The notes under the pieces: model-generated
What the model saw: the letters and a program-made list of their open reading frames with translations, nothing else
Told to the model about the DNA's origin: nothing
Database searches by the model: none
DNA from: Candidatus Fermentibacterota bacterium
Lineage (GTDB): Bacteria > JAFGKV01
Assembly: GCA_030620115.1 (NCBI GenBank)
Contig: JAUXFG010000015.1
Span: 1 to 38,871 of the forward strand
Length of the DNA: 38,871 nucleotides
Reading direction: 5' to 3'
Shown here: piece by piece, positions 12,520 to 38,458 of the stretch
Numbering within the stretch: the stretch's first letter is position 1
Layout of the letters: each line of letters opens with the position of its first letter
Translations under genes and position numbers: made by a program

Positions 12520-12676
12520 TAGGAATCGCAAGGCCCTTTATGATCTTCAAAAGGGTTATCCCGGACTTCTCACCGGCTTTCGTCGCGAAGCGGTGGAGTT
12601 GGCGGTGGCTGTCCCGCACCCAACGCTTTGGGTGCGGGATGAGAAATGCGGGTTATAGGTTATCCCGGACACCCTT
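12520..12676. repeat. REPIN-like composite repeat. Inverted copy of module 'cttcgcgacgaaagccggtgagaagtccgggataaccc' (12553–12590), then perfect hairpin cccgcacccaa-cgct-ttgggtgcggg (12613–12638), then module 'gagaaatgcgggtta'
   Basis: Same modules recur at 31897–31970, 33530–33700, 37540–37590 and 38366–38450. The six-frame track translates them into pseudo-similar peptides (HRFATKAGEK.., HRFETKAGEK.., SRLATKAGEK..) in different frames. Confidence 0.7.
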
Positions 12677-15023: not shown

Positions 15024-16868
15024 ATGCTTCTAGACCAAGCCCACTGTCCGGAGACGCCGGGGCCGGATCGAGACGAACTGGTGACTATACGGAAAGCCCG
15101 CGCATTCTTCCCCCAGGCCAAGGAATTGGCGCTGCTGCGCAGAGCATGCAATACCTGGAGAACCAAGAAGACTGGCGTTGCGCTGGAGATTGACCTGTTC
15201 CCGCCCAAAATTCCCTGCCGCTTCCGGAAAATCTGTGCCATCACCGTGGTATCCGACGACTGGCCTGGCATGGGTGAGACATGCCTTGGCATTGTGCACG
15301 AGCGCGGCTGGAATGTCCACTATGCCCAAGGCATGGTTCTCCAGGAAAACGACCAAGACCTGGGCGTGTTCATCATGGCAATCGGCATTGAATCGGATGA
15401 GGGGCTCCGGCAAATATCCGCGGAGCTCAAGGACATTGAGTCGGAGTTGCTGAGCCTGAGCATTGGAAGGCGTGCGAAAATGCTGCTCATCGCCAAGGAA
15501 GCGAAGAAGCTGGCGCTCCTGAGCAAAGTGGTTGAGGAATTGGCCAAGCTTTCCAGCGGCAAAGAGCTCCAAGAGATCATCGCGCCCATGGGAGAATCGA
15601 CAAAGTTCTTTGCGGCACGGACAGATGAGTACATGCATGCCTGGTCACCGGCGGTGCTGGCATATCAGATCACCACGAACTATGGATTGCTCAAGAAGGT
15701 GCGAGCATCCGGTGGTTTCGGTGTGATCCGAGTAGAGAACTGCCAGGCAGCAAACGAAACAAGAACGTGTATCACCGTGGTGGGCCTCGTACGGGACATA
15801 TCGGTGGAAGAGACGCTCCGGGTCGTGGGTGAGCGCCTGGGGTTCCATGAGCAATACCATTTGATTGAGTTTACGACCCAGGATGGACTCAACCTGGTCC
15901 GCTTGGAAATTGGGCAGGCTGGAGGCCGGGAGCTTTCGGTTGCCCAGGTCAAAGAACTCGAGCTCAGCCTCAAAGAAATGCTCTCGGGCCAGCGGGTTGC
16001 CTGGGCACACAGAATCGAGTCCAGGGGAGGCTTCGAGCAGTATGTCAGAGCAATCATACCATTGCTCCTGAAAGAACATGCAGCCACCGGGCTCCCTCAA
16101 GTATATATGTCCCCCACGTCACGCGAGAAGACCGTGGCGAGTTTCAAGGTGATCTTTGTTTATTCTACGCCCGTCGGCCAAACCGCACCGTCGATACGCC
16201 TCCCAGAGTTGTTGCAGGTACTGCCCGGTGTCCAGGTCGTCTCGTCATCGAGTCCAAGGATCATGGGGGATCAGCGTCTGTTCGTCATGAACATCAATGT
16301 TGATCTCACCAAATTCAAGGATACCGAGGACATCTATCACACATTGCGAAAGCAGGTTCACGAGGTCTTCTCGGAATTCCGTGATTTCGATGAGGGAATG
16401 CGCCTCGGTGACATGACGAAGCTCAAGGAAATCGAGGATGCGCTCTCCGGGTATGACCTACGAATCGTGAGTAGGATCTACTACGCCATCGATGATTTCT
16501 CGCGGCTCAGCATGAGCCGGGATGAAATCGTCCGCCTTCTTCGGCTTGGACTGTCGGCTCTCTCTGAACTGGATGCGCGAACCGAACCCGATCCCTCGCC
16601 CGTGATCTATGATGAACGACTCAAGAATCATCATGGAGAGGTGATCTCGGCGCTGTTGGCAATCGTCTCGCCCCAGGGACGGGGTATCCCGAGCTGCATT
16701 CGAGAATTATCATCGCAGGCCCAGGTCACCGTCAGTCAGATCCGGCATGGCGACGGCGAGCTCCTCTTGTGCCGCATCACGGGCATGGGAGGAAATCCTC
16801 CCGATGAGTCCGCGATACAGGATGTCCTCCAGTGTATTGCGGGGATGCAGTGTCACGACTGGCACTAA
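15024..16868 (+). CDS. Hypothetical protein built from ~4 ACT-like (βαββαβ) regulatory repeats; no catalytic domain recognised
   Basis: Repeated segments such as ITVVSDDWPGMGETCLGIVHERGWNVHYAQ, CITVVGLVRDISVEETLRVVGERLGF and KVIFVYSTPVGQ...VQVVSSS. GAGGAGG RBS upstream of the ATG. Confidence 0.55.
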   Translation: MLLDQAHCPETPGPDRDELVTIRKARAFFPQAKELALLRRACNTWRTKKTGVALEIDLFPPKIPCRFRKICAITVVSDDWPGMGETCLGIVHERGWNVHYAQGMVLQENDQDLGVFIMAIGIESDEGLRQISAELKDIESELLSLSIGRRAKMLLIAKEAKKLALLSKVVEELAKLSSGKELQEIIAPMGESTKFFAARTDEYMHAWSPAVLAYQITTNYGLLKKVRASGGFGVIRVENCQAANETRTCITVVGLVRDISVEETLRVVGERLGFHEQYHLIEFTTQDGLNLVRLEIGQAGGRELSVAQVKELELSLKEMLSGQRVAWAHRIESRGGFEQYVRAIIPLLLKEHAATGLPQVYMSPTSREKTVASFKVIFVYSTPVGQTAPSIRLPELLQVLPGVQVVSSSSPRIMGDQRLFVMNINVDLTKFKDTEDIYHTLRKQVHEVFSEFRDFDEGMRLGDMTKLKEIEDALSGYDLRIVSRIYYAIDDFSRLSMSRDEIVRLLRLGLSALSELDARTEPDPSPVIYDERLKNHHGEVISALLAIVSPQGRGIPSCIRELSSQAQVTVSQIRHGDGELLLCRITGMGGNPPDESAIQDVLQCIAGMQCHDWH

Positions 16869-16917
16869 CGCACACTTCCTTGTCCGAGACTCCACTCGTC
16901 ATACACACCCCTGATCA

Positions 16918-17886
16918 GTGAACTGGCGTTTCTCCTGGTATCTGAAGAGGCTTCCTGGAAAGTCTCCTCCCCACTACCTCAATTTGGAACCGACGAATCG
17001 GTGCAACCTTTCGTGCATCTGGTGCGTGGCTTCATCGGCTCGACCGCAGGGGTTCCTCGAGCTTGCGCTGGCCCAACGCGTGCTTGATCAGGCTGCTTCC
17101 GCGGGTGTACGGGAGATCCGCTTTTTTCTTGCAGGCGAACCGTTGCTTCATCCCAAGATCCATGAGCTGGTCTCCATGGCCAAGATCCGGAAGCTCAGGA
17201 CCGTGATTCACAGCAATGCAATGCTTCTCACCCGAGAGAAGAGCAAAGCCCTGATTTCCGCCGGTCTCGACGAAATCTCATTCAGCGTGAACGGCCTCAC
17301 TCATGAGGAAATCAGTCAAAACCAGCCCGGCGCCGAGCTTGATGTGATGGTTTCGCACATCCACGACTTCCTGACGCAAAAACGAGACACAAGCTCTTCT
17401 TTTCCCTTGGTTATCCTCCAAATCATACAGCATCCCACTGAATTGGGAAAACCGCTGGACCGAGACAGGATAAAGGCCTTGTTTGGTGAGCCTGGCCCCG
17501 ATCGGATTCTCCGCCTTGCCCCCCATTCCTGGGCCGGCCAGCTTTCCGGCGATGCCGCGGCTGCGCGAGGAACGCGATATCATCCCTGTCAGCCTCTCTG
17601 GCAGGGCATGAGCGTGGCGTGGGATGGACGAGTGTTCCTCTGCTGTGGAGATCTGAACGGCAGGGTGGTAATTGGTGACCTCAGACAAGAGCAGCTCATG
17701 GATGTATGGAACGGTCAACGATTGAACAAAATAAGACAACACGTGGTAAAGAATGATCGGAGCGCACTTGCTCTCTGTTCCGGATGCGATGCCCTCTGGT
17801 GGCACACGCATCCTCTGAGCCATGACCTAAGAAGAGCCGGCTGGAGAGTGCTCGGCAGGGTTCTCCACAAGACCAAGGGATTTTGA
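16918..17886 (+). CDS. Radical SAM enzyme with C-terminal SPASM/twitch-like auxiliary cluster domain
   Basis: CNLSCIWC (CX3CX2C) at residues ~29–36; C-terminal CQ...CCGDLNG...CSGC cysteine cluster; GTG start; 322 aa. Confidence 0.8.
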   Translation: MNWRFSWYLKRLPGKSPPHYLNLEPTNRCNLSCIWCVASSARPQGFLELALAQRVLDQAASAGVREIRFFLAGEPLLHPKIHELVSMAKIRKLRTVIHSNAMLLTREKSKALISAGLDEISFSVNGLTHEEISQNQPGAELDVMVSHIHDFLTQKRDTSSSFPLVILQIIQHPTELGKPLDRDRIKALFGEPGPDRILRLAPHSWAGQLSGDAAAARGTRYHPCQPLWQGMSVAWDGRVFLCCGDLNGRVVIGDLRQEQLMDVWNGQRLNKIRQHVVKNDRSALALCSGCDALWWHTHPLSHDLRRAGWRVLGRVLHKTKGF

Positions 17887-17899
17887 GAAGGAGAATTCA

Positions 17900-19726
17900 A
17901 TGAAGGAACAGATCCGCCGGGTTCTCTGTCGCTTCCAGGGTGGAGCCACTCCTGCGCTTCGTGGATCATCTTCCGCCTTCTGGATGATATGCGCAGCGCT
18001 CTCGCTTCTCGCCTGTTCCGACAAGAAGGGCCCTCGCCTGGTAATCCTGGGGCTTGACGCAGCGAACTGGGTATCCATGGAACCTCTTCTGGAGGAGGGG
18101 CTTCTCCCCAACCTCTCTCGACTCATTCGAGAGGGCGCCGCGGGCTCATTGTCTACTTTTATTCCCACCGCTTCCCCAGCCATTTGGACCACTATTGCCA
18201 CCGGCCAGTCTCCCGACAAGCATGGTATCGCTTTTCGCGTGCTCCAGATAGGAGAAGGGAAACCCGGGGAGGAGATGCTCGCCGCTATCAGCTCTGATGA
18301 GCGGGAGGTCAAGGCGCTGTGGAACCTCTTCACGGATTACGGCATCCAGAGTGCATTCATCGGCTGGTGGGCAACATGGCCCGCGGAAAAGATCCTTGGA
18401 TATGTGGTTTCTGACAAGGTGTATGAACCCCGGCTCAAACGGACCACATTCCCGACGGATCTTCGCAACAAACTTGCCCGGCAGGGTCTGCTTGAACAAG
18501 GATTGCCGCCCGAGCAGAAGGCTTGGTTTCGAAGGTTGCGGGGTGAGTTCAATGCATGGCGTCAAAACGTGGAAGAGGGAAGAACGCGGTGGACGGGGAC
18601 TGCCCCAAACGTAAAACGTTACTTCCAAGATCTCGAGGAGAAACTCCAAGCATACCGCCGAATAATGGCATTGGACTACCGCACAGAGCTGATTACGCAT
18701 CACCTGATGGATACTGATCCACCCGTCGAAGTCATTGCACCGTATTTCTGGTACATGGATATCTGCCAGCACATATTCTGGAAATACTGGAAGCCGGAAG
18801 GCTTCGACATCGACGAGAAAGAATTGGAGATCTTCGGAAAACTTGTTCCCCACTACTACGAGTTCATTGATGAGGTCGTCGGCAGGATCCTCGATCATGC
18901 CGGTCGCCATGCTATGGTTGTTGTCGTTTCAGACCATGGCATGGAAAGCTACTACTCGGACGCGTATGTCAACGATCTCTTCGATGTCGAAGGCGTGCTT
19001 GTCGACCTTGGCTGGTCGACCCGCGGTGCGGACAGGCGCCCGGATCTTGCACGATCAAAGGCTTATGTGAAGGCTGGGTCTCGACAGATGCGCCTCATCA
19101 ACCTCTCGGTGCAGGGACGTGAGCCGCACGGCAAAATCCAGGAGAAGGATCGGGCAGCGATGGTGGAGACGTTGGCCGAACAGCTCAAATCACTCAAGAC
19201 ACGGGCCTCTTCGAGACCTCTCTTCAACGAGGTGAGGATCCTGGGTGATTCGGAACAGAGCTATTCCACAGGCGGCTTTGTCTACTATGTCTTCGAACGC
19301 GCGGATCTCGCCTTGACTCTTAATAATCATGTGGATCTCGATGATTCCTTGAATGTCGCGGGAAAGGTCTTTCCATTGTCCCGTTGGAACAAGTGGCGCC
19401 CGTCGATCACGGGGCATCATTCCATGGCGCCCGCAGGCATCGTCATACTCAAAGGAGCTCCCTTTCAACGAGGCGCACGCCTTGAGAATGCGCGGGTCCA
19501 CGATGTTACTCCCACGATCATGGCCGCCTTTGGCCTCCCGGTGGCGGAGGATCTTGAAGGAAGAGTACTTGCCGAGGGCTTTAGGCAAGCGTTCTTCGAG
19601 AACAGCCCCGTTATCTCGATTCCCGGCTATGGCGCCAGGGCCGCCTTTGTAAAAGAGGGCATTCTGGAGGGCAGTGCGGACGACGCGCTCATCCAGCAGT
19701 TGAAGGCAATCGGCTACATACGGTGA
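17900..19726 (+). CDS. Alkaline-phosphatase-superfamily enzyme of the NPP / type I phosphodiesterase family; predicted lipoprotein
   Basis: LVILGLDAANW metal-binding start; IPTASPAIWTTIATGQSPDKHGI nucleophile region resembling the NPP TxP...TG...HG signature; VVVSDHGME. Signal peptide with lipobox LLAC. AGGAGA RBS. Confidence 0.8.
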   Translation: MKEQIRRVLCRFQGGATPALRGSSSAFWMICAALSLLACSDKKGPRLVILGLDAANWVSMEPLLEEGLLPNLSRLIREGAAGSLSTFIPTASPAIWTTIATGQSPDKHGIAFRVLQIGEGKPGEEMLAAISSDEREVKALWNLFTDYGIQSAFIGWWATWPAEKILGYVVSDKVYEPRLKRTTFPTDLRNKLARQGLLEQGLPPEQKAWFRRLRGEFNAWRQNVEEGRTRWTGTAPNVKRYFQDLEEKLQAYRRIMALDYRTELITHHLMDTDPPVEVIAPYFWYMDICQHIFWKYWKPEGFDIDEKELEIFGKLVPHYYEFIDEVVGRILDHAGRHAMVVVVSDHGMESYYSDAYVNDLFDVEGVLVDLGWSTRGADRRPDLARSKAYVKAGSRQMRLINLSVQGREPHGKIQEKDRAAMVETLAEQLKSLKTRASSRPLFNEVRILGDSEQSYSTGGFVYYVFERADLALTLNNHVDLDDSLNVAGKVFPLSRWNKWRPSITGHHSMAPAGIVILKGAPFQRGARLENARVHDVTPTIMAAFGLPVAEDLEGRVLAEGFRQAFFENSPVISIPGYGARAAFVKEGILEGSADDALIQQLKAIGYIR

Positions 19727-20805
19727 CTAAAGTCTCCCGCGGTCGGTTGCTTCGAGCCGGTGCACTCCATCTGCAAAGGAATCTGCTGGCAACCCTTTCT
19801 ACGCGCCGAACTACACCTCTCGGTCCCCCGCTCTACCTGGCGTTGGGCATCACAAAGCGGTGCAACTCGAAATGTTTGTACTGCGACCTCTGGCGCGCGG
19901 ATTCCACGGCTGAACTTGGGATCCATGAGTGGACGGCAATCATCAATGAGGCGGCAGCCTGGGTGGCGCCGGCCCATGTCTCCATTGCAGGCGGTGAGCC
20001 ATTCCTCCGCCCGGATCTTGGCGCCATCGTTCTGGCAGCACACGAGGCTGGTCTCTTGCCTTCGGTTGTCACCAACGGTACTCTCCTGCCGCCGCACAGA
20101 ATCAAAGAGGTGGCCTCGTGGCCCCTGGCATCGCTGACCATCTCTATTGACTCGCTCTCTCCGGAGCCCCATGACCGTATTCATGGCCTGCCGGGCACGC
20201 ACCACAAGGCCATGGCTGCGTTGAGAGGTCTCCTCCAGCGGGGCATGGGGCCCCGGCTGCGGGTTGCCGCCGTGATCACGGGCTTCAACATTCACGATCT
20301 TTTACCCCTTGCGCAATGGGTATTCGACCAGGGAATCGGCGGCTTCACTGTGCAACCATTGGGGGAGCCGTTCGAGCGCACCCGCGACCCCTCCTGGTAT
20401 GAAAAGTCACCGCTCAGACTGACCGACCCCCAGGACGTAAAGCCTCTGGTCGAGAGCCTGAAACAGTTAAAAACCAAAGGATGCCCCGTCATGAATCCCG
20501 CCAGACAACTGGATGCACTCCCCGTTTATTACGAGAATCCGGAGCGGGGGCTCTTCCTCCCGTGTCGTGTCGGCAGCACTACCTTGGGGATCGGCCCTGG
20601 CGGCGATCTTCGCTTCTGCCCGTACCATCCACCCTTTGGTCAGTGGGGTGCAGGCCCCCTCCGCGATCAATGGGTCAGCGCCACCGCGGCTTCAGCCCGC
20701 ACCAAGATCCTGAAATGCGCCCGAGGCTGCAGCATCATGAACTGCACTTTCAACCCAACTCTGGGGGAGCGTGTTGTCCGTTGGAAGAGAGCTTTGGCCT
20801 GGTGA
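19723..20805 (+). CDS. Second radical SAM enzyme with full SPASM-like C-terminal domain
   Basis: CNSKCLYC (CX3CX2C); C-terminal C...GDLRFC...CARGCSIMNC. GTG start overlapping the stop of the upstream gene (GTGA). Confidence 0.8.
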   Translation: MTKVSRGRLLRAGALHLQRNLLATLSTRRTTPLGPPLYLALGITKRCNSKCLYCDLWRADSTAELGIHEWTAIINEAAAWVAPAHVSIAGGEPFLRPDLGAIVLAAHEAGLLPSVVTNGTLLPPHRIKEVASWPLASLTISIDSLSPEPHDRIHGLPGTHHKAMAALRGLLQRGMGPRLRVAAVITGFNIHDLLPLAQWVFDQGIGGFTVQPLGEPFERTRDPSWYEKSPLRLTDPQDVKPLVESLKQLKTKGCPVMNPARQLDALPVYYENPERGLFLPCRVGSTTLGIGPGGDLRFCPYHPPFGQWGAGPLRDQWVSATAASARTKILKCARGCSIMNCTFNPTLGERVVRWKRALAW

Positions 20806-21808
20806 AGTGAGACACCCATTGTTTACCGACGAGAGGACACTTCCTTCGCTGGATGGCGAACCGAAACTGAAACTGTCGATACTCATCGTGAATACCAATA
20901 GCAAGGAGCTTCTTCTTGCGTGTCTCCAATCGATCTACGCCACCGTACGTGCCATCCCCTACGAGATCATCGTGGTCGACAATGCATCTACCGACGGATC
21001 GGTTGAGGCCGTGCGCGACCGGTTCCCCAAGGTGCTTCTTATTGAGAACGACTACAACAACTGGTTCACCGGGGGAACCAACCAGGCAACACTCGCCAGC
21101 ACGGGCGAGTATCTGCTCTGCCTCAATCCCGATACGATCTGTCATGAAGAGGCCATCGATGCCCTGGTGACCTTCCTCGATGACCACCCCAAGGTTGGTG
21201 TCGTCGGCCCGAAACTACTGAATGGCGACGGAACGCTCCAGCCTTCGTGTCGCAACTTCCTGACGAACCGGCGCTTGGTGCTGCAGCACTTCTTCCCTTG
21301 GCGAAAAACGCCAAATGCTTGGCGGAAGAGGACGGTTCTCGAATACTGGGACCACGACGAGACCACAGAAGTCGATTGGCTGATCGGCGCGTGTATCCTT
21401 GTACGACGAACTGCCGTGGAGTTGGTGGGCCTCAAAGACGAGGGCTACCCTATCTTCCATGAGGAAACGGACTGGTGTTACCGCCTCAAACAAGCGGGAT
21501 GGGAGACTTGGTTTCTCCATCATGCCCAGATCGTTCATTTCGGGAGCCAAACAGTGGGAAAACTGTGGGGGCGCGGGCTTGTCTTGGAGTTCTACAAGGG
21601 CAAGCACCGTTTCATCAGAAAGCATTACGGGAATACCGCGCTGCTCTTTCATCGTATGCTCATCTCTTGCCTGCTCCTTGCGAGGCTTGTGAAATCCTCG
21701 CTTCTTGGAGCCCTACCTATGGGTACTATGCACAGGGAACAGATCCCAATCCTGCTGCAGGCCATAGCCCTTCAACTGGGCGCCTATCGCAGAAGGCGGG
21801 TCGAGTAA
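20771..21808 (+). CDS. GT2-family glycosyltransferase (rhamnosyl/β-glycosyltransferase-like, Glyco_tranf_2_3 type)
   Basis: LSILIVNTNS...IIVVDNASTDGS...LNPDT (DXD). Start uncertain: the ATG at 20771 overlaps the previous gene by 35 nt; an in-frame TTG at about 20816 is an alternative. Confidence 0.8.
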   Translation: MLSVGRELWPGEVRHPLFTDERTLPSLDGEPKLKLSILIVNTNSKELLLACLQSIYATVRAIPYEIIVVDNASTDGSVEAVRDRFPKVLLIENDYNNWFTGGTNQATLASTGEYLLCLNPDTICHEEAIDALVTFLDDHPKVGVVGPKLLNGDGTLQPSCRNFLTNRRLVLQHFFPWRKTPNAWRKRTVLEYWDHDETTEVDWLIGACILVRRTAVELVGLKDEGYPIFHEETDWCYRLKQAGWETWFLHHAQIVHFGSQTVGKLWGRGLVLEFYKGKHRFIRKHYGNTALLFHRMLISCLLLARLVKSSLLGALPMGTMHREQIPILLQAIALQLGAYRRRRVE

Positions 21809-21816
21809 GGAGAAGC

Positions 21817-22953
21817 ATGGGCACAGATTCCTATCTCAAGGCGGTGGAACGCGTACTCAGTGAACTTCCCAGGGAACAGGTGGATCAACTTGTGGAGGTA
21901 TTGGCAAAGGCGCGAACCCTCCGCCGCCAGGTTTTTCTTATGGGAAATGGCGGATCGGCAGCCACCGCTTCACACATTGCCTGTGACCTTGGCAAAGGAA
22001 CGGTCAGACCCGACAAGAAGCGCTTTCGCGTTACCGCGTTGACCGACAACGTACCACTCATGACTGCCTGGGCAAACGACACGTCGTACGACATGGTTTT
22101 CGTGGAGCAGCTCTCGGGGTGCATCCAGCCGGGAGACGTCGTGATTGCCCTCAGCGGAAGCGGCAACTCGCCGAATGTCCTCAAAGCCATCGAGTATGCG
22201 GCGTCAGCCGGCGCAACTACTGTTGGCCTCACAGGGTATGATGGAGGGCGCCTGGCCCGATTGGTCGACCACGCGGTGATCGTTTCGGATAACTGCATGG
22301 AGAGAATAGAAGATGTTCACCTGGTGCTCGGCCATGCCGTGGCCGCCGCCCTGAGAGACATCATCGCCCAAGAGCCTGTGCCCAGCAGAGATCGGGTGGT
22401 CTTTCTCGACAGGGATGGTGTCATCAATCAACTGGCGCCGGACAATGGATACGTCACTTCTTGGGAGGATTTCCGATTCCTTCCCGGGGCTCTCGATGCC
22501 ATTGCTCGACTCACAAGAAGTGGATTCCGCATTGTGGTAGTCACCAATCAAAGCTGTATCGGCCGGGGCCTTGCGACCCATGAAGATATCCGACTCATCC
22601 ACAGAATCATGGAGGAGAGAATAGAGGAAGTCGGCGGAAGAATAGAAGCGGTGTACTATTGTCCGCATAAGCCTGATGACGGCTGTTCGTGCAGAAAACC
22701 AAAACCCGGCCTTTTTCTTGCCGCGCAGGAAGACCTTGGTATCGATCTCGTGCAATCCATAGTGATTGGGGATAGCCTATCAGACCTGCAGGCAGTGGAG
22801 AAAATCCACGGGACGTCTCTCCTTGTCCGCACGGGCCACGGTTCTGACACAATGGCGCAACTCGGACCGGGGGTAGTGCAACCATCGGCCATCGCCCATG
22901 ACGTGGGCGAGGCGGCAGAATGGATCCTTGAGAAGAGAGCCCCGCCGGGATAA
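21817..22953 (+). CDS. Bifunctional SIS-domain phosphoheptose isomerase (GmhA-like) fused to HAD-family D,D-heptose 1,7-bisphosphate phosphatase (GmhB-like)
   Basis: N-terminal half: FLMGNGGSAATASHIACDL...ALSGSGNSPNV (SIS). C-terminal half: VFLDRDGVIN...YCPHKPDDGCSCRKPKPG...IGDSLSDL (HAD IIIA/GmhB with Cys-cluster zinc site). Start trimmed from the track's 21475 to ATG 21817, which has an AAGGAG RBS directly after the GT2 stop. Confidence 0.8.
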   Translation: MGTDSYLKAVERVLSELPREQVDQLVEVLAKARTLRRQVFLMGNGGSAATASHIACDLGKGTVRPDKKRFRVTALTDNVPLMTAWANDTSYDMVFVEQLSGCIQPGDVVIALSGSGNSPNVLKAIEYAASAGATTVGLTGYDGGRLARLVDHAVIVSDNCMERIEDVHLVLGHAVAAALRDIIAQEPVPSRDRVVFLDRDGVINQLAPDNGYVTSWEDFRFLPGALDAIARLTRSGFRIVVVTNQSCIGRGLATHEDIRLIHRIMEERIEEVGGRIEAVYYCPHKPDDGCSCRKPKPGLFLAAQEDLGIDLVQSIVIGDSLSDLQAVEKIHGTSLLVRTGHGSDTMAQLGPGVVQPSAIAHDVGEAAEWILEKRAPPG

Positions 22954-31559: not shown

Positions 31560-31964
31560 GTGTAACCGTTCAGGGGTTGAAAGGTTGATAGGTTCAGGGT
31601 TCACCGGAAATCCGAACCGTTGAGTCGTGGGATCTGAAAGGTAGCCTTGAATCCCGCTTCCAGCGGGAAACTCTGAACCTGTGAACGCTTACAGATGGCC
31701 CAAGCTGACTTCAGGCAACCCTGAACGGTGAACGCTGAACCCGTGAACGGCTTGTCCGTGCATCCGACATCCTCCACCTTTCGCAAAGGGGAATTCATCC
31801 GATATCTCACGAACTCATTGAGAAGTTACCAACTCCGCACATATTGCGCTATGGAGGGACGTCGGCTTCCAGATACTTCGCTGTCGCTCTGCATCCCGCG
31901 TCAGACGCGGGACAGCCACAGCCAACTACACCGCTTCGAGACGAAAGCCGGTGAGAAGTGCGGG
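31560..31964. repeat. Repeat cluster of four parts: TGAAC heptad arrays (31570–31600, 31660–31680, 31705–31740), the CCTTTCGCAAAGGGG hairpin module (31759–31790), the GC hairpin cccgcgtcagacgcggg (31897–31913), and module 'gagacgaaagccggtgagaagtgcgggctaag' (31936–31968)
   Basis: Direct comparison with 27400–27550, 12550–12660, 33530–33700 and 38366–38450. Confidence 0.65.
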
Positions 31965-33506
31965 CTAAGGATGCAACTGGCGCCGCCATCTCAATGCTAC
32001 AAGAACATGTCCCTTAAGTCGACGCCACCCGTTCTTGAGCGCCACCAGCCGATTGAAAAGGCTCTCGAAATAGGGCCGGTTGAATAGGGAGAGAAAGACC
32101 GGCTTGGAAAGGATTCGTACGATGCCATGGGGAAAACCTCGGGCGAGGAGTACATAGAGGACATTGAGGTAGTTACGGCGGAAAACACGATAGTCCTTCT
32201 GGTACAGAAGCCTCTCTTCGTCTACTATTCCTTCGGATAGCGCCTTCTCCAATAGCTTCGTACCCGGGAACAGTGCTAGCGAATAGAGCTGCAATACAAA
32301 AGGTCTTGGCAGGTCAAGGACCAGTTGAAGGGTCTCAAGTTCGTCCTCTATTGCGGAGAAGGGATTATCCAGAATGATGTCATAGAGAGGAATGATGCGG
32401 CCTTTGTACTTGTTGATGATCTTGGCGGCCTGAGTGACTGTTTCGCGTGAAGACCAAGTGCGTTGATACAGCTCATTTATCCTCTTGCTTCCTGTCTGGA
32501 TCCCGACCTGAAGCAAGAAAAGCCCCGCGTCCGCGAGGTACTTCATTTTTTCGGATGTGATACTCCGAGGGGTGGCCGTACACCGAAATGGGAGAGCTAC
32601 TTCTCTGGTATATGCCTCAAGAAAGTCCCTTATCTCTTCATTCCGTGTGTGAACGAATGTATCATCAGAAAAAAGAATGGCCCGTACAAAAGGAAAGCGT
32701 TCTCTGAATGCTTTGATCTCAGCAATTGCATTGGCATTCGACCGGCGTCGAACGTACGGCTGCCCAGGATAAAGCGCAGCCAACGCTTGATTGCCGCAGA
32801 ATGTGCACTTGTATGGACAACCCCGCGTAATCATGATCTGAAAGGTCGATTGAGCCCGACGGAGAGATCGAGGGCCGTAGTCCAGATAAACCTCAAGTAA
32901 GCCTGGATCCAAATTGACGATCCGCTGTTCTTCACGGCGGGAGATGTATTGATCTTCAAGATCGTAGTCCTGGAAGGGGAGAGTATCGAGATCCTGCAGC
33001 AGTGGGCGAAGCGGCGTCTCCACAATATGCCCATCTGTTTTCGTGTAGATATTCCTGATTCTTGTGGTGGGTTTGTCCTCTTTGAGAGCAATTGCCAACT
33101 CCAGTAGCGCTTCTTCCCCTTCCCCAACGCATACGAAATCTGCGTGCTCCAGGCATTGTTCTGGACGGAGAGTTGGATGAATTCCTCCCCATACGACGGG
33201 AACGCCCAGGCGTTGCACGATCCCGTCTGTGAGATGCCCCATGGAATGATGGTAATTTGTCATCATGGAGATGCCGATGAGAGATGACCCCTCGCACAGC
33301 TCAATCACCTGATCAATAACGTGAGGAGGGAATGTGAATTCCCAATTCGGGGTATCAACCTCTTCACAGAGCAAAACGTTCGATAGGAACAGCATTCGCG
33401 TCGAAACGCCATGTTCTTTGAGATACGACGAAAGCCCGCGCAGACTAAGAGCGGAAATATCAGTAAAGGGACTGATGAGAACAACGTCATAGGATTTCAT
33501 AAACAA
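31965..33506 (-). CDS. B12-binding-domain radical SAM protein (class B radical SAM family)
   Basis: N-terminal Rossmann-like cobalamin-binding domain (VVLISP...GISMMT...VVWGGIHPT), then radical SAM motif ITRGCPYKCTFC (CX3CX2C), then a long C-terminal domain; 513 aa. Confidence 0.85.
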   Translation of the reverse strand: MFMKSYDVVLISPFTDISALSLRGLSSYLKEHGVSTRMLFLSNVLLCEEVDTPNWEFTFPPHVIDQVIELCEGSSLIGISMMTNYHHSMGHLTDGIVQRLGVPVVWGGIHPTLRPEQCLEHADFVCVGEGEEALLELAIALKEDKPTTRIRNIYTKTDGHIVETPLRPLLQDLDTLPFQDYDLEDQYISRREEQRIVNLDPGLLEVYLDYGPRSLRRAQSTFQIMITRGCPYKCTFCGNQALAALYPGQPYVRRRSNANAIAEIKAFRERFPFVRAILFSDDTFVHTRNEEIRDFLEAYTREVALPFRCTATPRSITSEKMKYLADAGLFLLQVGIQTGSKRINELYQRTWSSRETVTQAAKIINKYKGRIIPLYDIILDNPFSAIEDELETLQLVLDLPRPFVLQLYSLALFPGTKLLEKALSEGIVDEERLLYQKDYRVFRRNYLNVLYVLLARGFPHGIVRILSKPVFLSLFNRPYFESLFNRLVALKNGWRRLKGHVLVALRWRRQLHP

Positions 33507-33519
33507 TCACCTTAGTTCT

Positions 33520-33730
33520 ATCCGTTCAGTCCGCGTCACGCGGCATCTTTGTTCGGTACTGCCGACGTGATGTGACAAATCCCTCCTCGTGATCCCGCGT
33601 TCGCCGCGGGGGGAAGAAATGCGGGCTTAGCCCAAGCTTCTCACCAATCCTGCGGCGGGTTCGCTTCGAAAGCCGGTGAGAAGTCCGGATTAGGCGGGTT
33701 TCGAACCCGGCTTTGGACTCAAAACAGGGA
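33520..33730. repeat. REP-like cluster with three components: hairpins tccgcgtcacgcgg and cccgcgttcgccgcgggg, modules 'ggaagaaatgcgggcttagcc' and 'cgaaagccggtgagaagtccggattaggc', and 'gtttcgaacccggctt'
   Basis: Same module family as at 12553–12656, 31897–31968, 37540–37590 and 38366–38450. Confidence 0.65.
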
Positions 33731-33812
33731 TAAGAAGGAGATCTTTTTGAAATTTGCAAGAGATCGGTGTGAATATGAGGATATCTTGGAAGAACCCTTC
33801 TGGGGGCCAAGT

Positions 33813-34820
33813 GGGGTCAGGCATTGCTAACGGCGAATTGAGATTTACTCTTCACGTCATTGATACGATCGTGTAGTGTTCTATCCCGATTCATCCTGTT
33901 CCGTAATCGAGCCGCGCCCGCGCTCAGGGTCGAGCTGTCCCGCTGAAATACTTTCGCCGCTTCTGCAATCGTGATCTCAGGGTGCTCCTGTACTATCAGC
34001 CCGATAACCGACCGCGCCTCTGACGCCAATCGTCCCCTTCCCGGTGCCAAAAGCTCGTCCTGTGCTATCCCGTATGCTTTGCATACGCCATCAATGATCC
34101 CGTCGAGTGTTATCCGTGTCCCTTTCATGCCATCTTCGGCTTCCTGCACTCGCTCGATGAAACTCTCATTTCCGATGAGTCGACCGTCAGACTGCGCCGG
34201 ACTGAACTCAGACTTGGCTGCGTCACTATCCAATCCACCCAAAACGAATCGGTGGAACCGTTCTCGTGCTTCTCCTTCTCGGTCTGCAAACCGAGCCAAA
34301 ACCAACCCCTCTGTGAGCCAGGGCAGTGTATCGTCTCCTCTGTAGAATCGATGGCTGCTCCAGCGATATGATTCCGGTCTTTTCATGATACCGGCTCGCA
34401 CAGGATTGAGATGAATGTAGCTCACCAATTGAAGCAGATAGGAGTCGACATCTACCAAATTTGTCTTGTACCGCCCCTGAAACAGATGACCAACTCGTTG
34501 GTGGCGCCTGTTGAACCACTGGGTATACCGGAACGTGAGATTCTGCATGATGCGGGAGAGTGGCCGTTCTCCCACCTGGATCGCGATATGGATGTGGTCG
34601 TCGAGCAGACAAAACGCGTGAACGCGGTACCCAAATCGCTCGGTCCCTTCTTGCATCAAAAGACAAAATCTTGTCCGGTCTACGTCATCATAGAACACAT
34701 CATCCTGGGCGTTCCCCCGCAGGATGACATGATACAAGGCCCCTTGATAGTGGATTCGTGGTTTACGTGACATGCTGTCCAATATACATACTCACATCGC
34801 TGTTAGCAATGCCTGACCCC
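33813..34820 (-). mobile_element. Y1 (IS200-like/RAYT-type) transposase unit bounded by 23-bp imperfect terminal inverted repeats: ggggtcaggcattgctaacggcg (33813–33835) and cgctgttagcaatgcctgacccc (34798–34820)
   Basis: The inverted repeats match at 22 of 23 positions. The right IR encodes the C-terminal ...AVSNA of the transposase. Confidence 0.7.
33817..34773 (-). CDS. IS200-like Y1 tyrosine transposase (REP-associated tyrosine transposase-like) with C-terminal DnaA-C-like helix-turn-helix domain
   Basis: HxH motif DDHIHIAIQ and catalytic-Tyr region YRWSSHRFY typical of the Y1_Tnp family; C-terminal GIAQDELL...ITIAEAAKVFQRDSSTLS resembles DnaA domain IV. Start taken at ATG 34771–34773; the ORF-track start at 34782 is a TTG. 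Confidence 0.8.
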   Translation of the reverse strand: MSRKPRIHYQGALYHVILRGNAQDDVFYDDVDRTRFCLLMQEGTERFGYRVHAFCLLDDHIHIAIQVGERPLSRIMQNLTFRYTQWFNRRHQRVGHLFQGRYKTNLVDVDSYLLQLVSYIHLNPVRAGIMKRPESYRWSSHRFYRGDDTLPWLTEGLVLARFADREGEARERFHRFVLGGLDSDAAKSEFSPAQSDGRLIGNESFIERVQEAEDGMKGTRITLDGIIDGVCKAYGIAQDELLAPGRGRLASEARSVIGLIVQEHPEITIAEAAKVFQRDSSTLSAGAARLRNRMNRDRTLHDRINDVKSKSQFAVSNA

Positions 34821-34827
34821 AATCGGC

Positions 34828-34981
34828 ACTCCTTGTCTATACCGCCCGGAATGTTCCGTCGCTTCAGGATGTACCGATCCCCAGACGTCACCGTCACCGC
34901 CGTGGCACTTCCCCAATAGGAGTCAATCGGTTCGTTCGAGACGACGTCGCCTATATCCCAAGATGCGAGCAAGTCCTTCAT
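34828..34981 (-). pseudogene. 5' fragment (about 50 codons) of an APH/homoserine-kinase-type-II family phosphotransferase gene, truncated at the transposase-unit boundary
   Basis: MKDLLASWDIGDVVSNEPIDSYWGSATAVTVTSGDRYILKRRNIPGG matches the N-terminal nucleotide-binding lobe pattern of APH/HSK-II kinases. Protein-like sequence stops where the 23-bp IR begins (34820). Confidence 0.4.
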
Positions 34982-35078: not shown

Positions 35079-35462
35079 CTACTTCGTGTAGGCTGGCCTG
35101 AGGCCCTTAAGCATAGGGTAGTGTTTGGTGTTGAGGGTTTTCAGCTCCGCGTTCTCGGCTTGAGCGGTAGCAGCCAAGATGGCATCTGCAAGGCCGACGC
35201 CGTGTGACTTGGCATAATCACGCTTGTAGAGCCCTCCAGTCTTCGCGATCGCCGCATCTACAGGGATAACACGAAAGAGTGAGATGAAATCCTCCAAAAC
35301 AACTTGTTCTGCATCTCCCTTCACTCCAGCGTATAGTTCCGCAACGACGATGGATGACAGGACAATTAGATCAGATTTGGCGTTTACCAAGGCCAGCGCT
35401 TTGCTGTGGCCGCGGAGGAAGTCAACAAGAACATCTGTGTCGAGAAGGATTGACTTTGCCAT
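35079..35462 (-). CDS. vapC: PIN-domain toxin
   Basis: ILLDTDVLVDFL (first conserved Asp), PIN fold pattern. Start ATG overlaps the antitoxin stop (ATGA). Confidence 0.85.
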   Translation of the reverse strand: MAKSILLDTDVLVDFLRGHSKALALVNAKSDLIVLSSIVVAELYAGVKGDAEQVVLEDFISLFRVIPVDAAIAKTGGLYKRDYAKSHGVGLADAILAATAQAENAELKTLNTKHYPMLKGLRPAYTK

Positions 35463-35464
35463 GA

Positions 35465-35698
35465 TCAGTTCCTGTCCCATTCGGCTCGCGTTGCCTTGAA
35501 GTCAGGAAGATCCGTACGATTCTTCCAGATTCCGGCAGCCTCGCGTAATACCACCTCCCGTCGACTGCGGCCTGATTGATCGATGAGGCGATTGACGGCC
35601 TCTCGAATGAGCTCGCTCTGTTTTTTCCCCGCGGTCTTGGAGATAGCAGCCAGTTCGTCACGTTGGTGCTCTGTCAGGTATATCTGCGTTCGTATCAT
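35465..35698 (-). CDS. vapB: Ribbon-helix-helix (CopG/VapB-type) antitoxin
   Basis: 77 aa; N-terminal RHH pattern TQIYLTEHQRDELAAISK; located upstream of and coupled to vapC. Confidence 0.8.
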   Translation of the reverse strand: MIRTQIYLTEHQRDELAAISKTAGKKQSELIREAVNRLIDQSGRSRREVVLREAAGIWKNRTDLPDFKATRAEWDRN

Positions 35699-36049: not shown

Positions 36050-36280
36050 CTATTCGTTGTCATCATCTCGCAGCATCACCATTGCCCCATGGATTACTGC
36101 AATGACATCAATTTGATCTGATTTGATGTGATATATGATTCTGTATGGACCGACAAAGACTTCTCTGATTTGATCAATGTCATATTCTGGGACACGACGG
36201 CCAGACAGCGGAAACGCCCCTATCTGTTGCGATTTCCTTGTGATTCGATCAACTGTGCGAAGTGCATATATGGCGTCCAA
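36050..36280 (-). CDS. ParE/RelE-superfamily toxin; N-terminus uncertain
   Basis: GAFPLSGRRVPEYDIDQIREVFVGPYRIIYHIKSDQIDVIAVIHGA matches the ParE/RelE core. The only in-frame canonical start is a TTG. The 12 codons upstream (IKIHWTETAEGH) look like a genuine ParE N-terminus but lack ATG/GTG/TTG. Confidence 0.6.
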   Translation of the reverse strand: MDAIYALRTVDRITRKSQQIGAFPLSGRRVPEYDIDQIREVFVGPYRIIYHIKSDQIDVIAVIHGAMVMLRDDDNE

Positions 36281-37295: not shown

Positions 37296-37600
37296 CGCCA
37301 TAACTGTGATCTTATTCTTGCGCGAATCCTTGGCTATGTCTCGCCCTTTCAGGGCTGAGGGGTTTTACTTCTGTGCCTGTGCCCCAGGGCTACGCCCTGT
37401 CGGGCTTTCCCTGGGCTGGTATGTCAAGCCCCTTCAGGGCACATTGCGAGAATGGCTATATCGACTGACGGACAGAGTATACGGCATCGGGCTACGCGCT
37501 GGCAGAGCCGGGGTCCTCGATCGTCCCGGGACAGCCGCAGGCATCTATGGCCTCTCGCGACAAAATCGGATGAGAAGTCCGGGTTAAGATGCGACATCTG
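37296..37600 (+). repeat. Composite repeat copy A (~300 bp) with three modules: 'cttattcttgcgcgaatccttggctatgtctcgccctttcagggctgagg', 'ccagggctacgccc...gggctttccctgggctggtatgtcaagccccttcagggcacattgcgagaatggctatatcg', and terminal 'tctcgcgacaaaatcggatgagaagtccgggttaag'
   Basis: Direct repeat of 38165–38458, roughly 85% identical with one 26-bp hairpin indel, by eye alignment. Confidence 0.75.
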
Positions 37601-37690: not shown

Positions 37691-38143
37691 CTATTCATCT
37701 ATCTGCTTCAGGATGGCCTGGATTTCATGGGCGAATGCCCGGATCTCGTCGCGGATGCGACGGTAGTGTTGAAGAGCTTCATCCTCGTTATGCGCGCGCG
37801 CAGCAAGCGCCGGGGGATCATCGAATCCGCGGTGGAGCATGGTCGTTTTGCGTGGAAAGATCGGGCACGTTTCCCTGGCGTGGCCGCAGAGGGTAATGAC
37901 ATAGTCGAATTCCACATCGAGTAGTTCTTGCACGTCTTTTGAACGCTGGTCCGAGATATCAACGCCAGCCTCCGCCATTACTATGATGGCCCTCGGATCC
38001 ACGCTTTTTGCCACGATGCCCGCGGAATATGCCTCCACCAGGTCACCCATGAGACGACGCGTCCACCCTTCTGCCATCTGGCTCCTGCAGGAATTCCCGG
38101 TGCAGAGAAAGAGTATCTTCGGATTCAGTTGCTTCTCTTGCAT
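37691..38143 (-). CDS. arsC: Arsenate reductase of the LMW-PTP (thioredoxin-coupled) family
   Basis: ILFLCTGNSCRSQMAEGW (CX5R P-loop), downstream Cys pair LCGHARETCP, GFDDP; 150 aa; aligns along its length with the pI258-type ArsC pattern. Confidence 0.9.
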   Translation of the reverse strand: MQEKQLNPKILFLCTGNSCRSQMAEGWTRRLMGDLVEAYSAGIVAKSVDPRAIIVMAEAGVDISDQRSKDVQELLDVEFDYVITLCGHARETCPIFPRKTTMLHRGFDDPPALAARAHNEDEALQHYRRIRDEIRAFAHEIQAILKQIDE

Positions 38144-38164: not shown

Positions 38165-38458
38165 CGCTATTCTCGCGCGAATCCTTGGCTATGTCTCGCC
38201 CTTTCAGGGCTGAGGGATTTTCCTTCTGTGCCCCAGGGCTACGCCCCGTCGGGCTTTCCCTGGGCTGGTATGTCAAGCCCCTTCAGGGCACATTGCGAGA
38301 ATGGCTATATCGGCTGACGGACAGAGGCTACGCCCTGGCAGAGCCGGGAGCCTTGGTCGTCCCGCACCCAAAGCGTTGGGTGCGGGACAGCCACAACCAT
38401 TTCTCCCGTCTCGCGACGAAAGCCGGTGAGAAATGCGGGTTAAGCATGAGATGTGACA
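38165..38458 (+). repeat. Composite repeat copy B; contains the hairpin cccgcacccaa-agcg-ttgggtgcggg (38368–38393) and terminal module 'tctcgcgacgaaagccggtgagaaatgcgggttaag'
   Basis: Direct repeat of 37296–37600. Its hairpin has the same stem as 12613–12638 but a reverse-complemented loop, so the two copies are in opposite orientation. Confidence 0.75.

Follow-up and report, generated by a model that had tools for sequence, protein, structure and literature searches.

Which kind of element is formed by a Y1-type transposase gene that lies between terminal inverted repeats (TIRs)? The question was raised by a locus on contig JAUXFG010000015.1 of a Candidatus Fermentibacterota bacterium, which was analyzed over the whole stretch of 38,871 nucleotides (nt), called the window below. 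An earlier note on this DNA had described a Y1 transposase with a DnaA-like helix-turn-helix (HTH) domain, bracketed by TIRs and surrounded by hairpin repeats, and had judged rightly that Y1 enzymes do not usually come with TIRs. We identify the locus as a TIRtron, a module in which the gene of a TIRYT is located between TIRs. The TIRYT combines a DnaA-type DNA-binding domain with a Y1/HUH nuclease similar to the REP-associated tyrosine transposases (RAYTs; REP, repetitive extragenic palindromic sequence). In the passages on these elements, Di Nocera, De Gregorio and Rocco (2013, BMC Genomics 14:522, PMC3733652) describe RAYT-like genes between long TIRs unrelated to REPs, and name the proteins TIRYTs and the structures TIRtrons. 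As the type was described in 2013, the locus is a clean new example and not a new kind of element. The parts of the module are located in the window as follows.

33813-34820, minus strand: TIR-bounded module (TIRtron), 1008 bp, length counted from GGGG to CCCC
33806-34827: module including the extended repeat
34791-34827, minus strand: upstream (5') TIR arm
33806-33842, plus strand: downstream (3') TIR arm
33817-34773, minus strand: TIRYT gene, 318 amino acids (aa) plus stop codon
34402-34731, minus strand: Y1/HUH nuclease domain, aa 15-124
33835-34116, minus strand: C-terminal HTH domain similar to DnaA domain IV, aa ~220-313
34781-34809, minus strand: predicted sigma-70-like promoter, TTGCTA-17 nt-TATATT, with the -35 box in the upstream TIR

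Terminal inverted repeats

The inverted-repeat search returned two arms of 37 nt each, which are 86% complementary. The repeat is therefore real and longer than the 23 bp claimed before. Its exact 19-nt core GGGGTCAGGCATTGCTAAC occurs twice in the window when up to 3 mismatches are allowed, and 0 times in 100 shuffles. On the gene strand the upstream arm reads GCCGATT-GGGGTCAG-GCATTGCTAACAGCGATGTGAG; the first G of GGGGTCAG is found 47 nt before the ATG and the inner end of the arm 17 nt before it. The downstream arm covers the last 8 codons and supplies the codons at the gene end (F-A-V-S-N-A), and the TGA stop codon (33817-33819, minus strand) is located within the conserved CTGACCCC. Thus, the claim that one arm encodes the C-terminal residues was confirmed and includes the stop codon. 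Each arm starts with GGGGTCAG, in agreement with the published motif: many TIRs of TIRtrons are described to carry GGGGWSAS, their distance from the gene is similar, and some of them extend over its 3' end (passages on TIRs in PMC3733652).

Folding of the arms as single-stranded DNA gave z values of +0.4 to -1.4, which is no better than shuffled sequence, and the arms bracketing the gene do not contain the GTAG tag. Because the arms fold no better than shuffled DNA, they are genuine TIRs rather than palindromes of the REP type. The inner part of the TIR, GCATTGCTAACRGCGA, is lineage-specific and was found elsewhere only in one metagenomic relative with 75% identity and in two solo copies. A scan for TIR copies with GGGGTCAGGCATTGCWAACRG gave 0 matches in 185,579 species genomes, which do not include the source genome.

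Domains and predicted structure of the protein

The open reading frame (ORF) finder called 33817-34782 on the minus strand, i.e. 321 aa starting at a TTG three codons upstream of the ATG at 34773. The ATG is favoured by an alignment of 28 family sequences, which starts with M-[SA]-R-K-P-R. In this alignment H62 and Y119 are invariant and H60 is conserved in at least 90% of the sequences. H60-I-H62 forms the HUH motif, and Tyr119 within YIHLNP is the putative catalytic residue. The nuclease domain was matched by the Pfam family Y1_Tnp with an E-value of 2.8e-14. The best NCBIfam model was REP_Tyr_transpos (NF047646) with 67.1 bits, under its cut-off of 80 bits, whereas the model transpos_IS200 (NF033573) reached 19 bits with a cut-off of 55. 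The AlphaFold2 model of the protein had a mean predicted local distance difference test score of 85.8. Its top fold match was the E. coli RAYT with a bound REP hairpin (4ER8; E-value 5.4e-7, template modelling (TM) score 0.74 on the target), followed by the TnpA structures of IS608 and ISDra2. According to the NCBIfam scores and the match to 4ER8, the protein is RAYT-like and not an ordinary IS200 TnpA.

For the C-terminal domain, the proposed likeness to DnaA was borne out by profiles and by the predicted fold. The Pfam family Bac_DnaA_C matched aa 227-287 with an E-value of 1.2e-6 and 28.9 bits, slightly below the cut-off of 31.5 bits. Positions 342-436 of the DnaA model TIGR00362 matched with an E-value of 7.6e-9, and the family profile matched DnaA domain IV in the PDB (3PVP, 1J1V) with E-values of ~1e-9. 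The C-terminal part of the predicted model was superposed on 3PVP, the DnaA DNA-binding domain, with a TM score of 0.86 and a root-mean-square deviation of 1.5 Å; over both DnaA structures the C-terminal ~95 aa of the predicted fold superpose at 1.5-1.6 Å. The recognition segment R-D-x-(S/T)-T aligns with RDHTTV of DnaA. In contrast to DnaA, the His that contacts bases is not conserved and an AAA+ domain is missing; moreover, the TIR is unlike the DnaA box TTATNCACA.

Given the Pfam match to Y1_Tnp, and given that homologues are annotated plainly as ‘transposase’ in databases, the locus might be taken for an ordinary insertion sequence of the IS200/IS605 family, the inverted repeat being a chance or local feature. 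The HUH/Y1 fold, the conserved HUH motif and tyrosine, and the lack of a target-site duplication are indeed shared with the TnpA of IS608 and ISDra2. However, those elements carry subterminal hairpins instead of TIRs, their enzymes are dimers of 130-155 aa without an HTH, and they are often multicopy and often accompanied by tnpB. Here, the equivalog model for IS200 scored 19 bits with a cut-off of 55, the protein has 318 aa with an extra HTH domain, and neither subterminal hairpins nor tnpB are present. The repeat has a chance expectation of 0 and is conserved family-wide. The probability of an ordinary IS200/IS605 element is thus considered negligible.

Survey of homologous loci

At least 5,879 proteins scored as homologues, and both domains were present in nearly all of the best 120 listed. 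From species-representative genomes, 80 homologous loci with 30-52% identity were taken and their flanks were checked for inverted repeats. The sampled lineages included Geobacter and other Desulfobacterota, Zetaproteobacteria, Acidobacteriota, Nitrospirota, Chlamydiota, NC10, Binatia and Gammaproteobacteria. In most of the loci, an inverted repeat was found whose score was far higher than that of shuffled flanks. With at most 1 mismatch, GGGGTCAG was found at both ends in 57 of the 70 loci with usable flanks (30-75% identity, many phyla), and the terminal consensus across the family is T-GGGGTCAG-GC-n-T. In most surveyed loci, 44-53 nt separate the start of the motif from the ATG. At the downstream end, many loci have the outer edge of the motif exactly 4 nt beyond the stop codon, which places the TGA within the motif (CTGACCCC), as in the window. 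Counted from GGGG through CCCC, the modules have a median length of 1010 bp (interquartile range 1003-1044), close to the 1008 bp observed here. The inner TIR differs by lineage, and tandem subrepeats of 7-8 nt were found in 13 of 60 arms, with 1.4 expected. Direct repeats flanking the modules were at the shuffled expectation; target-site duplications are thus absent, as expected for HUH chemistry.

The termini themselves are duplicated in some loci. In contig L001, which carries the closest relative, the TIR terminus CAAGTGGGGTCAG... is present in three tandem copies upstream (1143-1216) and with one extra copy downstream (2355-2520), the latter followed by a microsatellite-like CACTYGCAC tract. 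Loci L011, L013, L017, L025, L038, L046 and L073 likewise have duplicated GGGGTCA termini directly outside the TIR. Such duplicated termini may be footprints of enzyme activity at the ends.

The predicted promoter of the window has 9 of 12 consensus matches, and 7 nt separate the end of its -10 hexamer from the ATG. A promoter with its -35 box in the upstream TIR was found in 19 of 60 family loci, compared to 1.8 expected, and in 14 of these 19 the distance from the end of the -10 box to the ATG is 5-7 nt. As the -10 box ends so close to the start codon, the TIRYT mRNA would be leaderless or near-leaderless.

Comparison with described systems

For the known class, the passages on TnpA-Y1 subclass 2.1 in Quentin et al. 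(2018, BMC Genomics 19:475, PMC6006769) assign 20 of the 26 TIRYTs of the 2013 study to this subclass. They describe a Bac_DnaA_C-like tail for subgroup 2.1.2 and state that REP-like sequences were not found near subclass 2.1 genes. On its domain architecture and TIR motif, to which the placement is confined, the present locus would belong to subgroup 2.1.2. The likeness comprises a RAYT-like Y1 protein, ~310 aa long, that ends in an HTH of the Bac_DnaA_C type, long non-REP TIRs with GGGGWSAS (here GGGGTCAG), a 3' TIR over the gene end and a TIR without amplification in the available sequence. Every feature of the TIRYT definition that was tested was found, i.e. a RAYT-related Y1/HUH protein, a long protein with a C-terminal HTH extension, for which Bac_DnaA_C, HTH_23 or HTH_28 qualifies, non-REP TIRs and GGGGWSAS. 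No essential difference was seen, and it is the inner TIR GCATTGCTAACRGCGA that is particular to the lineage of the window. The fixed register, the stop codon in the motif, the TIR promoter, the lack of target duplications and the length of ~1010 bp are family details which do not occur in the passages on TIRYTs of the published descriptions.

The RAYTs (TnpA_REP; E. coli YafM, 4ER8) provide the nearest solved catalytic fold and the best NCBIfam model. They share with the present system the single copy per genome and recognition sequences which flank the gene in inverted orientation. RAYT and REP/REPIN systems were reportedly treated by Nunvar in 2010 and by Bertels and Rainey in 2011. The locus differs from them by non-palindromic flanking repeats of 25-37 nt instead of GTAG-tagged hairpins, by the extra DnaA-like HTH and by a REP_Tyr_transpos score of 67 under the cut-off of 80. 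Furthermore, a dispersed population of cognate repeats is not evident, considering the window and the two solo TIRs in metagenomes.

Hairpin repeats near the gene

GC-rich hairpin repeats are present close to the gene, as the earlier note had stated, and represent a dispersed intergenic repeat of ~90 nt, which was found at the following positions.

12551-12639, minus strand: full copy
31886-31973: full copy
37506-37591: full copy
38359-38448: full copy
~33620-33693: partial inverted doublet, within the hairpin-containing repeats 33585-33725

Each repeat consists of a CCCGC...GCGGG hairpin followed by the conserved module CGAAAGCCGGTGAGAAGTCCGGGTTAAG. The hairpin is strongly stable (z = -5.1, single-stranded DNA folding), its apical sequence varies with compensatory changes and its 5' tag is CGTC, CATC or GATC. 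In a classical REPtron, the gene would encode a RAYT that mobilizes or maintains these repeats as its cognate REP/REPIN population, as had been suggested. This is compatible with the RAYT-like protein, with the four full copies in the window and the doublet 125-230 nt downstream of the gene, and with the contig of the closest relative, L001, where the module CGAAAGCCGGTGAGAAGTCCGGGTTAAG occurs as an inverted pair (672-700, 512-490) ~500-700 nt upstream of its TIRtron.

However, the gene is abutted by non-palindromic TIRs without GTAG, and no common sequence was detected between the ~90-nt repeat and the TIR. Within 2.5 kb the repeat is located on one side of the gene only, and its orientation on both sides is the same and not inverted. 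A profile search recovered it in the window and the L001 contig only, with 0 hits in the 80 other TIRYT loci. No Rfam family matched the hairpin repeats at gathering thresholds or with E-values up to 1, and tRNAs were not found. The published CGTC family of REPs has stems of 8-9 bp starting with A/T pairs, loops of 4-5 nt and a CCA tail. The repeats were also tried as tagged REPs, which was rejected, as they fit neither the GTAG definition nor the geometry of the CGTC family. The reported lack of REPs near subclass 2.1 genes (PMC6006769, as far as its passages on this subclass go) also disagrees with a REPtron. Finally, the window contains several other, unrelated families of short repeats, so that the proximity of hairpins to the gene is expected by density alone. 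Because of the missing likeness to the TIR, the asymmetry, the lack of an Rfam or REP fit and the absence from the 80 loci, the ~90-nt repeat is best read, at the level of sequence, as an independent, lineage-specific intergenic repeat. A REPtron is accordingly rated very unlikely. The GC-rich repeats noted at 31886-31973 and 33585-33725 are real, but their designation as REP-type and cognate to the gene is not upheld. The earlier reading as a RAYT with cognate REPs is thus supported in part only.

Evidence for movement

The closest relatives of the protein are encoded on contigs L001 (75% aa identity), L083 (65%) and L084 (64%). In each comparison with the window, homology extends from TIR to TIR only and the flanks are unrelated. 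Conserved synteny had been considered for L001, its downstream gene of 516 aa being taken as an orthologue of the radical-SAM (S-adenosylmethionine) gene of 513 aa next to the module in the window. This was withdrawn because blastn and tblastx similarity is confined to the TIR-to-TIR segment. On contig L093, which carries a radical-SAM neighbour gene with 86% identity, no trace of the module is present in the 490 nt upstream on the contig. The metagenome assembly of L093 also holds two solo TIR copies, at 246-279 of L089 and at 2340-2375 of L090 (assembly RCNG01), which are ~90% identical to the arms of the window. Each is followed by ~260 nt of common non-coding sequence, 79% identical between the contigs, and only ~12 codons of the TIRYT C-terminus are left as coding sequence. 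Another, truncated TIRYT-like gene lies in L090 at a distance of 1.7 kb from the solo TIR. As judged from these alignments, the TIR-to-TIR homology of the relatives, the L093 flank and the solo TIRs are evidence for movement on long timescales. The overall pattern is RAYT-like, as each lineage has one stable copy and the distribution is patchy. Plasmids rarely carry homologues (30 of 72,556 records), which counts against recent activity.

Proposed mechanism and its assessment

The locus is probably a TIRtron in the sense of a single-copy module of ~1 kb, comprising little beyond one gene, which works as follows. We infer three steps, namely binding of the TIR by the HTH, action of HUH/Tyr119 at the terminus and self-repression. 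In each TIR, the HTH domain would bind the inner, lineage-specific part in duplex form. Binding would position the HUH/Tyr119 site, and one strand would be nicked and rejoined at or beside the invariant GGGGTCAG terminus. Thereby the module would be excised and re-inserted, rarely and without target duplication. At the upstream TIR, binding of the HTH would repress the promoter of the gene itself and keep activity and copy number low; autorepression is proposed because the upstream TIR carries the -35 box of a promoter predicted to start transcription at about the ATG.

Several observations weigh against this account. Identical proteins were found on 8, 11 and 7 independent contigs, always in the same context; a recent multicopy spread was rejected for these three clusters, each of which represents one locus sampled repeatedly. 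A second copy of the module or a solo TIR was not found within the window, and a precise empty site was not found among orthologues of the neighbouring radical-SAM gene. These orthologues (86%, 84% and 72% identity) are located on short contigs or in rearranged contexts, and homology stops at the gene borders; hence, a precise empty site or target sequence is not readable. The promoter of the window, taken alone, is weak, as ~1.2 sites with 9 of 12 matches are expected by chance in the region. HUH enzymes process single-stranded DNA, while the target of a DnaA-type HTH is the duplex. A full-text literature search returned computational papers only and activity for no TIRYT. In the passages of Quentin et al. 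on the motif (PMC6006769), GGGGWSAS is described as unlike the DnaA box, so that the HTH may not read the TIR.

Some of these points would suit a fixed host gene with operator sites. In that case the module would be immobile, the repeats would be binding sites regulating its own promoter and perhaps termination, and the HUH domain would serve a host function, e.g. processing of single-stranded DNA at replication forks. The single copy, the constant locus of identical proteins, the -35 box within the upstream repeat across the family and the rarity on plasmids are consistent with this. The suggestion of Quentin et al. that the DnaA-like domain may target the replication fork (PMC6006769, in the passages on this domain) also agrees. 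An operator role, however, leaves unexplained the inverted 3' repeat, which carries the same terminal octamer in 57 of 70 loci, and an immobile gene does not account for homology that stops at the repeats in relatives of 65-75% identity with unrelated neighbourhoods, nor for the existence of solo repeat ends. A fixed host gene is therefore regarded as unlikely, and the mobile TIRtron is retained as the preferred explanation.

A broader version is put forward more tentatively, and we would not bet on it at even odds. TIRtrons might be minimal autonomous elements that make up a very large class across phyla. In them, recognition of the duplex TIR by a DnaA-type HTH would be combined with single-strand HUH/Y1 chemistry at the GGGGTCAG terminus, promoter and stop codon would reside in the ends, and self-repression would hold the element at one copy per genome.

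Neighbouring genes and other repeats

The window is an ordinary chromosomal region encoding IspD, FtsY, TatD, ornithine/aspartate carbamoyltransferase, IspH and ABC transporters. The neighbours of the module are toxin-antitoxin genes (PIN with ribbon-helix-helix, ParE) and the radical-SAM gene, which has a B12-binding domain. The toxin-antitoxin genes, which are typical of a variable chromosomal neighbourhood, and a further small ORF are located at the following positions.

35079-35698, minus strand, and 36050-36280, minus strand: directly upstream of the module, PIN-domain toxin with ribbon-helix-helix antitoxin, and ParE-family toxin
34763-34981, minus strand: ORF of 72 aa, which spans the upstream TIR and reaches into the beginning of the TIRYT gene

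For the 72-aa ORF, searches of Pfam, NCBIfam and the full protein set returned only the ORF itself. A supposed resemblance to an N-terminal kinase fragment of an interrupted gene was dismissed as unsupported, since no family or homologue matched. The ORF may be spurious or the remnant of a gene disrupted at the TIR.

Two radical-SAM genes, one of them encoding a SPASM domain, form a cluster at 15024-22953 (plus strand) together with genes for a phosphodiesterase, a glycosyltransferase and a SIS/HAD protein. In contig L091, a radical-SAM/SPASM gene and a phosphodiesterase are paired in a similar way near the orthologue of the radical-SAM neighbour.

Direct repeats of ~280 nt (37313-37592 and 38168-38448) are 95-96% identical over their first 215 nt and lie ~850 nt apart. 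They bracket a gene for a low-molecular-weight phosphotyrosine phosphatase (37691-38143, minus strand), and each ends in a ~90-nt hairpin repeat. Further short repeats are located at 27510-27550/31755-31795, 27410-27434/31716-31740 and 14716-14742/37198-37224, and also at 1-56 of L093. These unrelated families comprise a hairpin CCCCCTTTGGCAAAGGGGG, a tandem-like GTTCAGC motif and CCCCATGTAGGGGCATGCC. Several repeat types are unusually abundant between the genes of this organism, and one of them recurs in a related metagenomic contig.

Consequences for annotation and for the family

The gene should be annotated as TIRYT and the module as TIRtron (TnpA-Y1 subclass 2.1), and neither as a plain IS200 transposase nor as a REP-associated RAYT. 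An annotation should also keep the hairpin repeats nearby separate from the TIRYT gene. The class is abundant and conserved, and the T-GGGGTCAG-GC terminus, the register of start and stop codon, the TIR promoter and the lack of target duplications provide concrete handles for experimental work.

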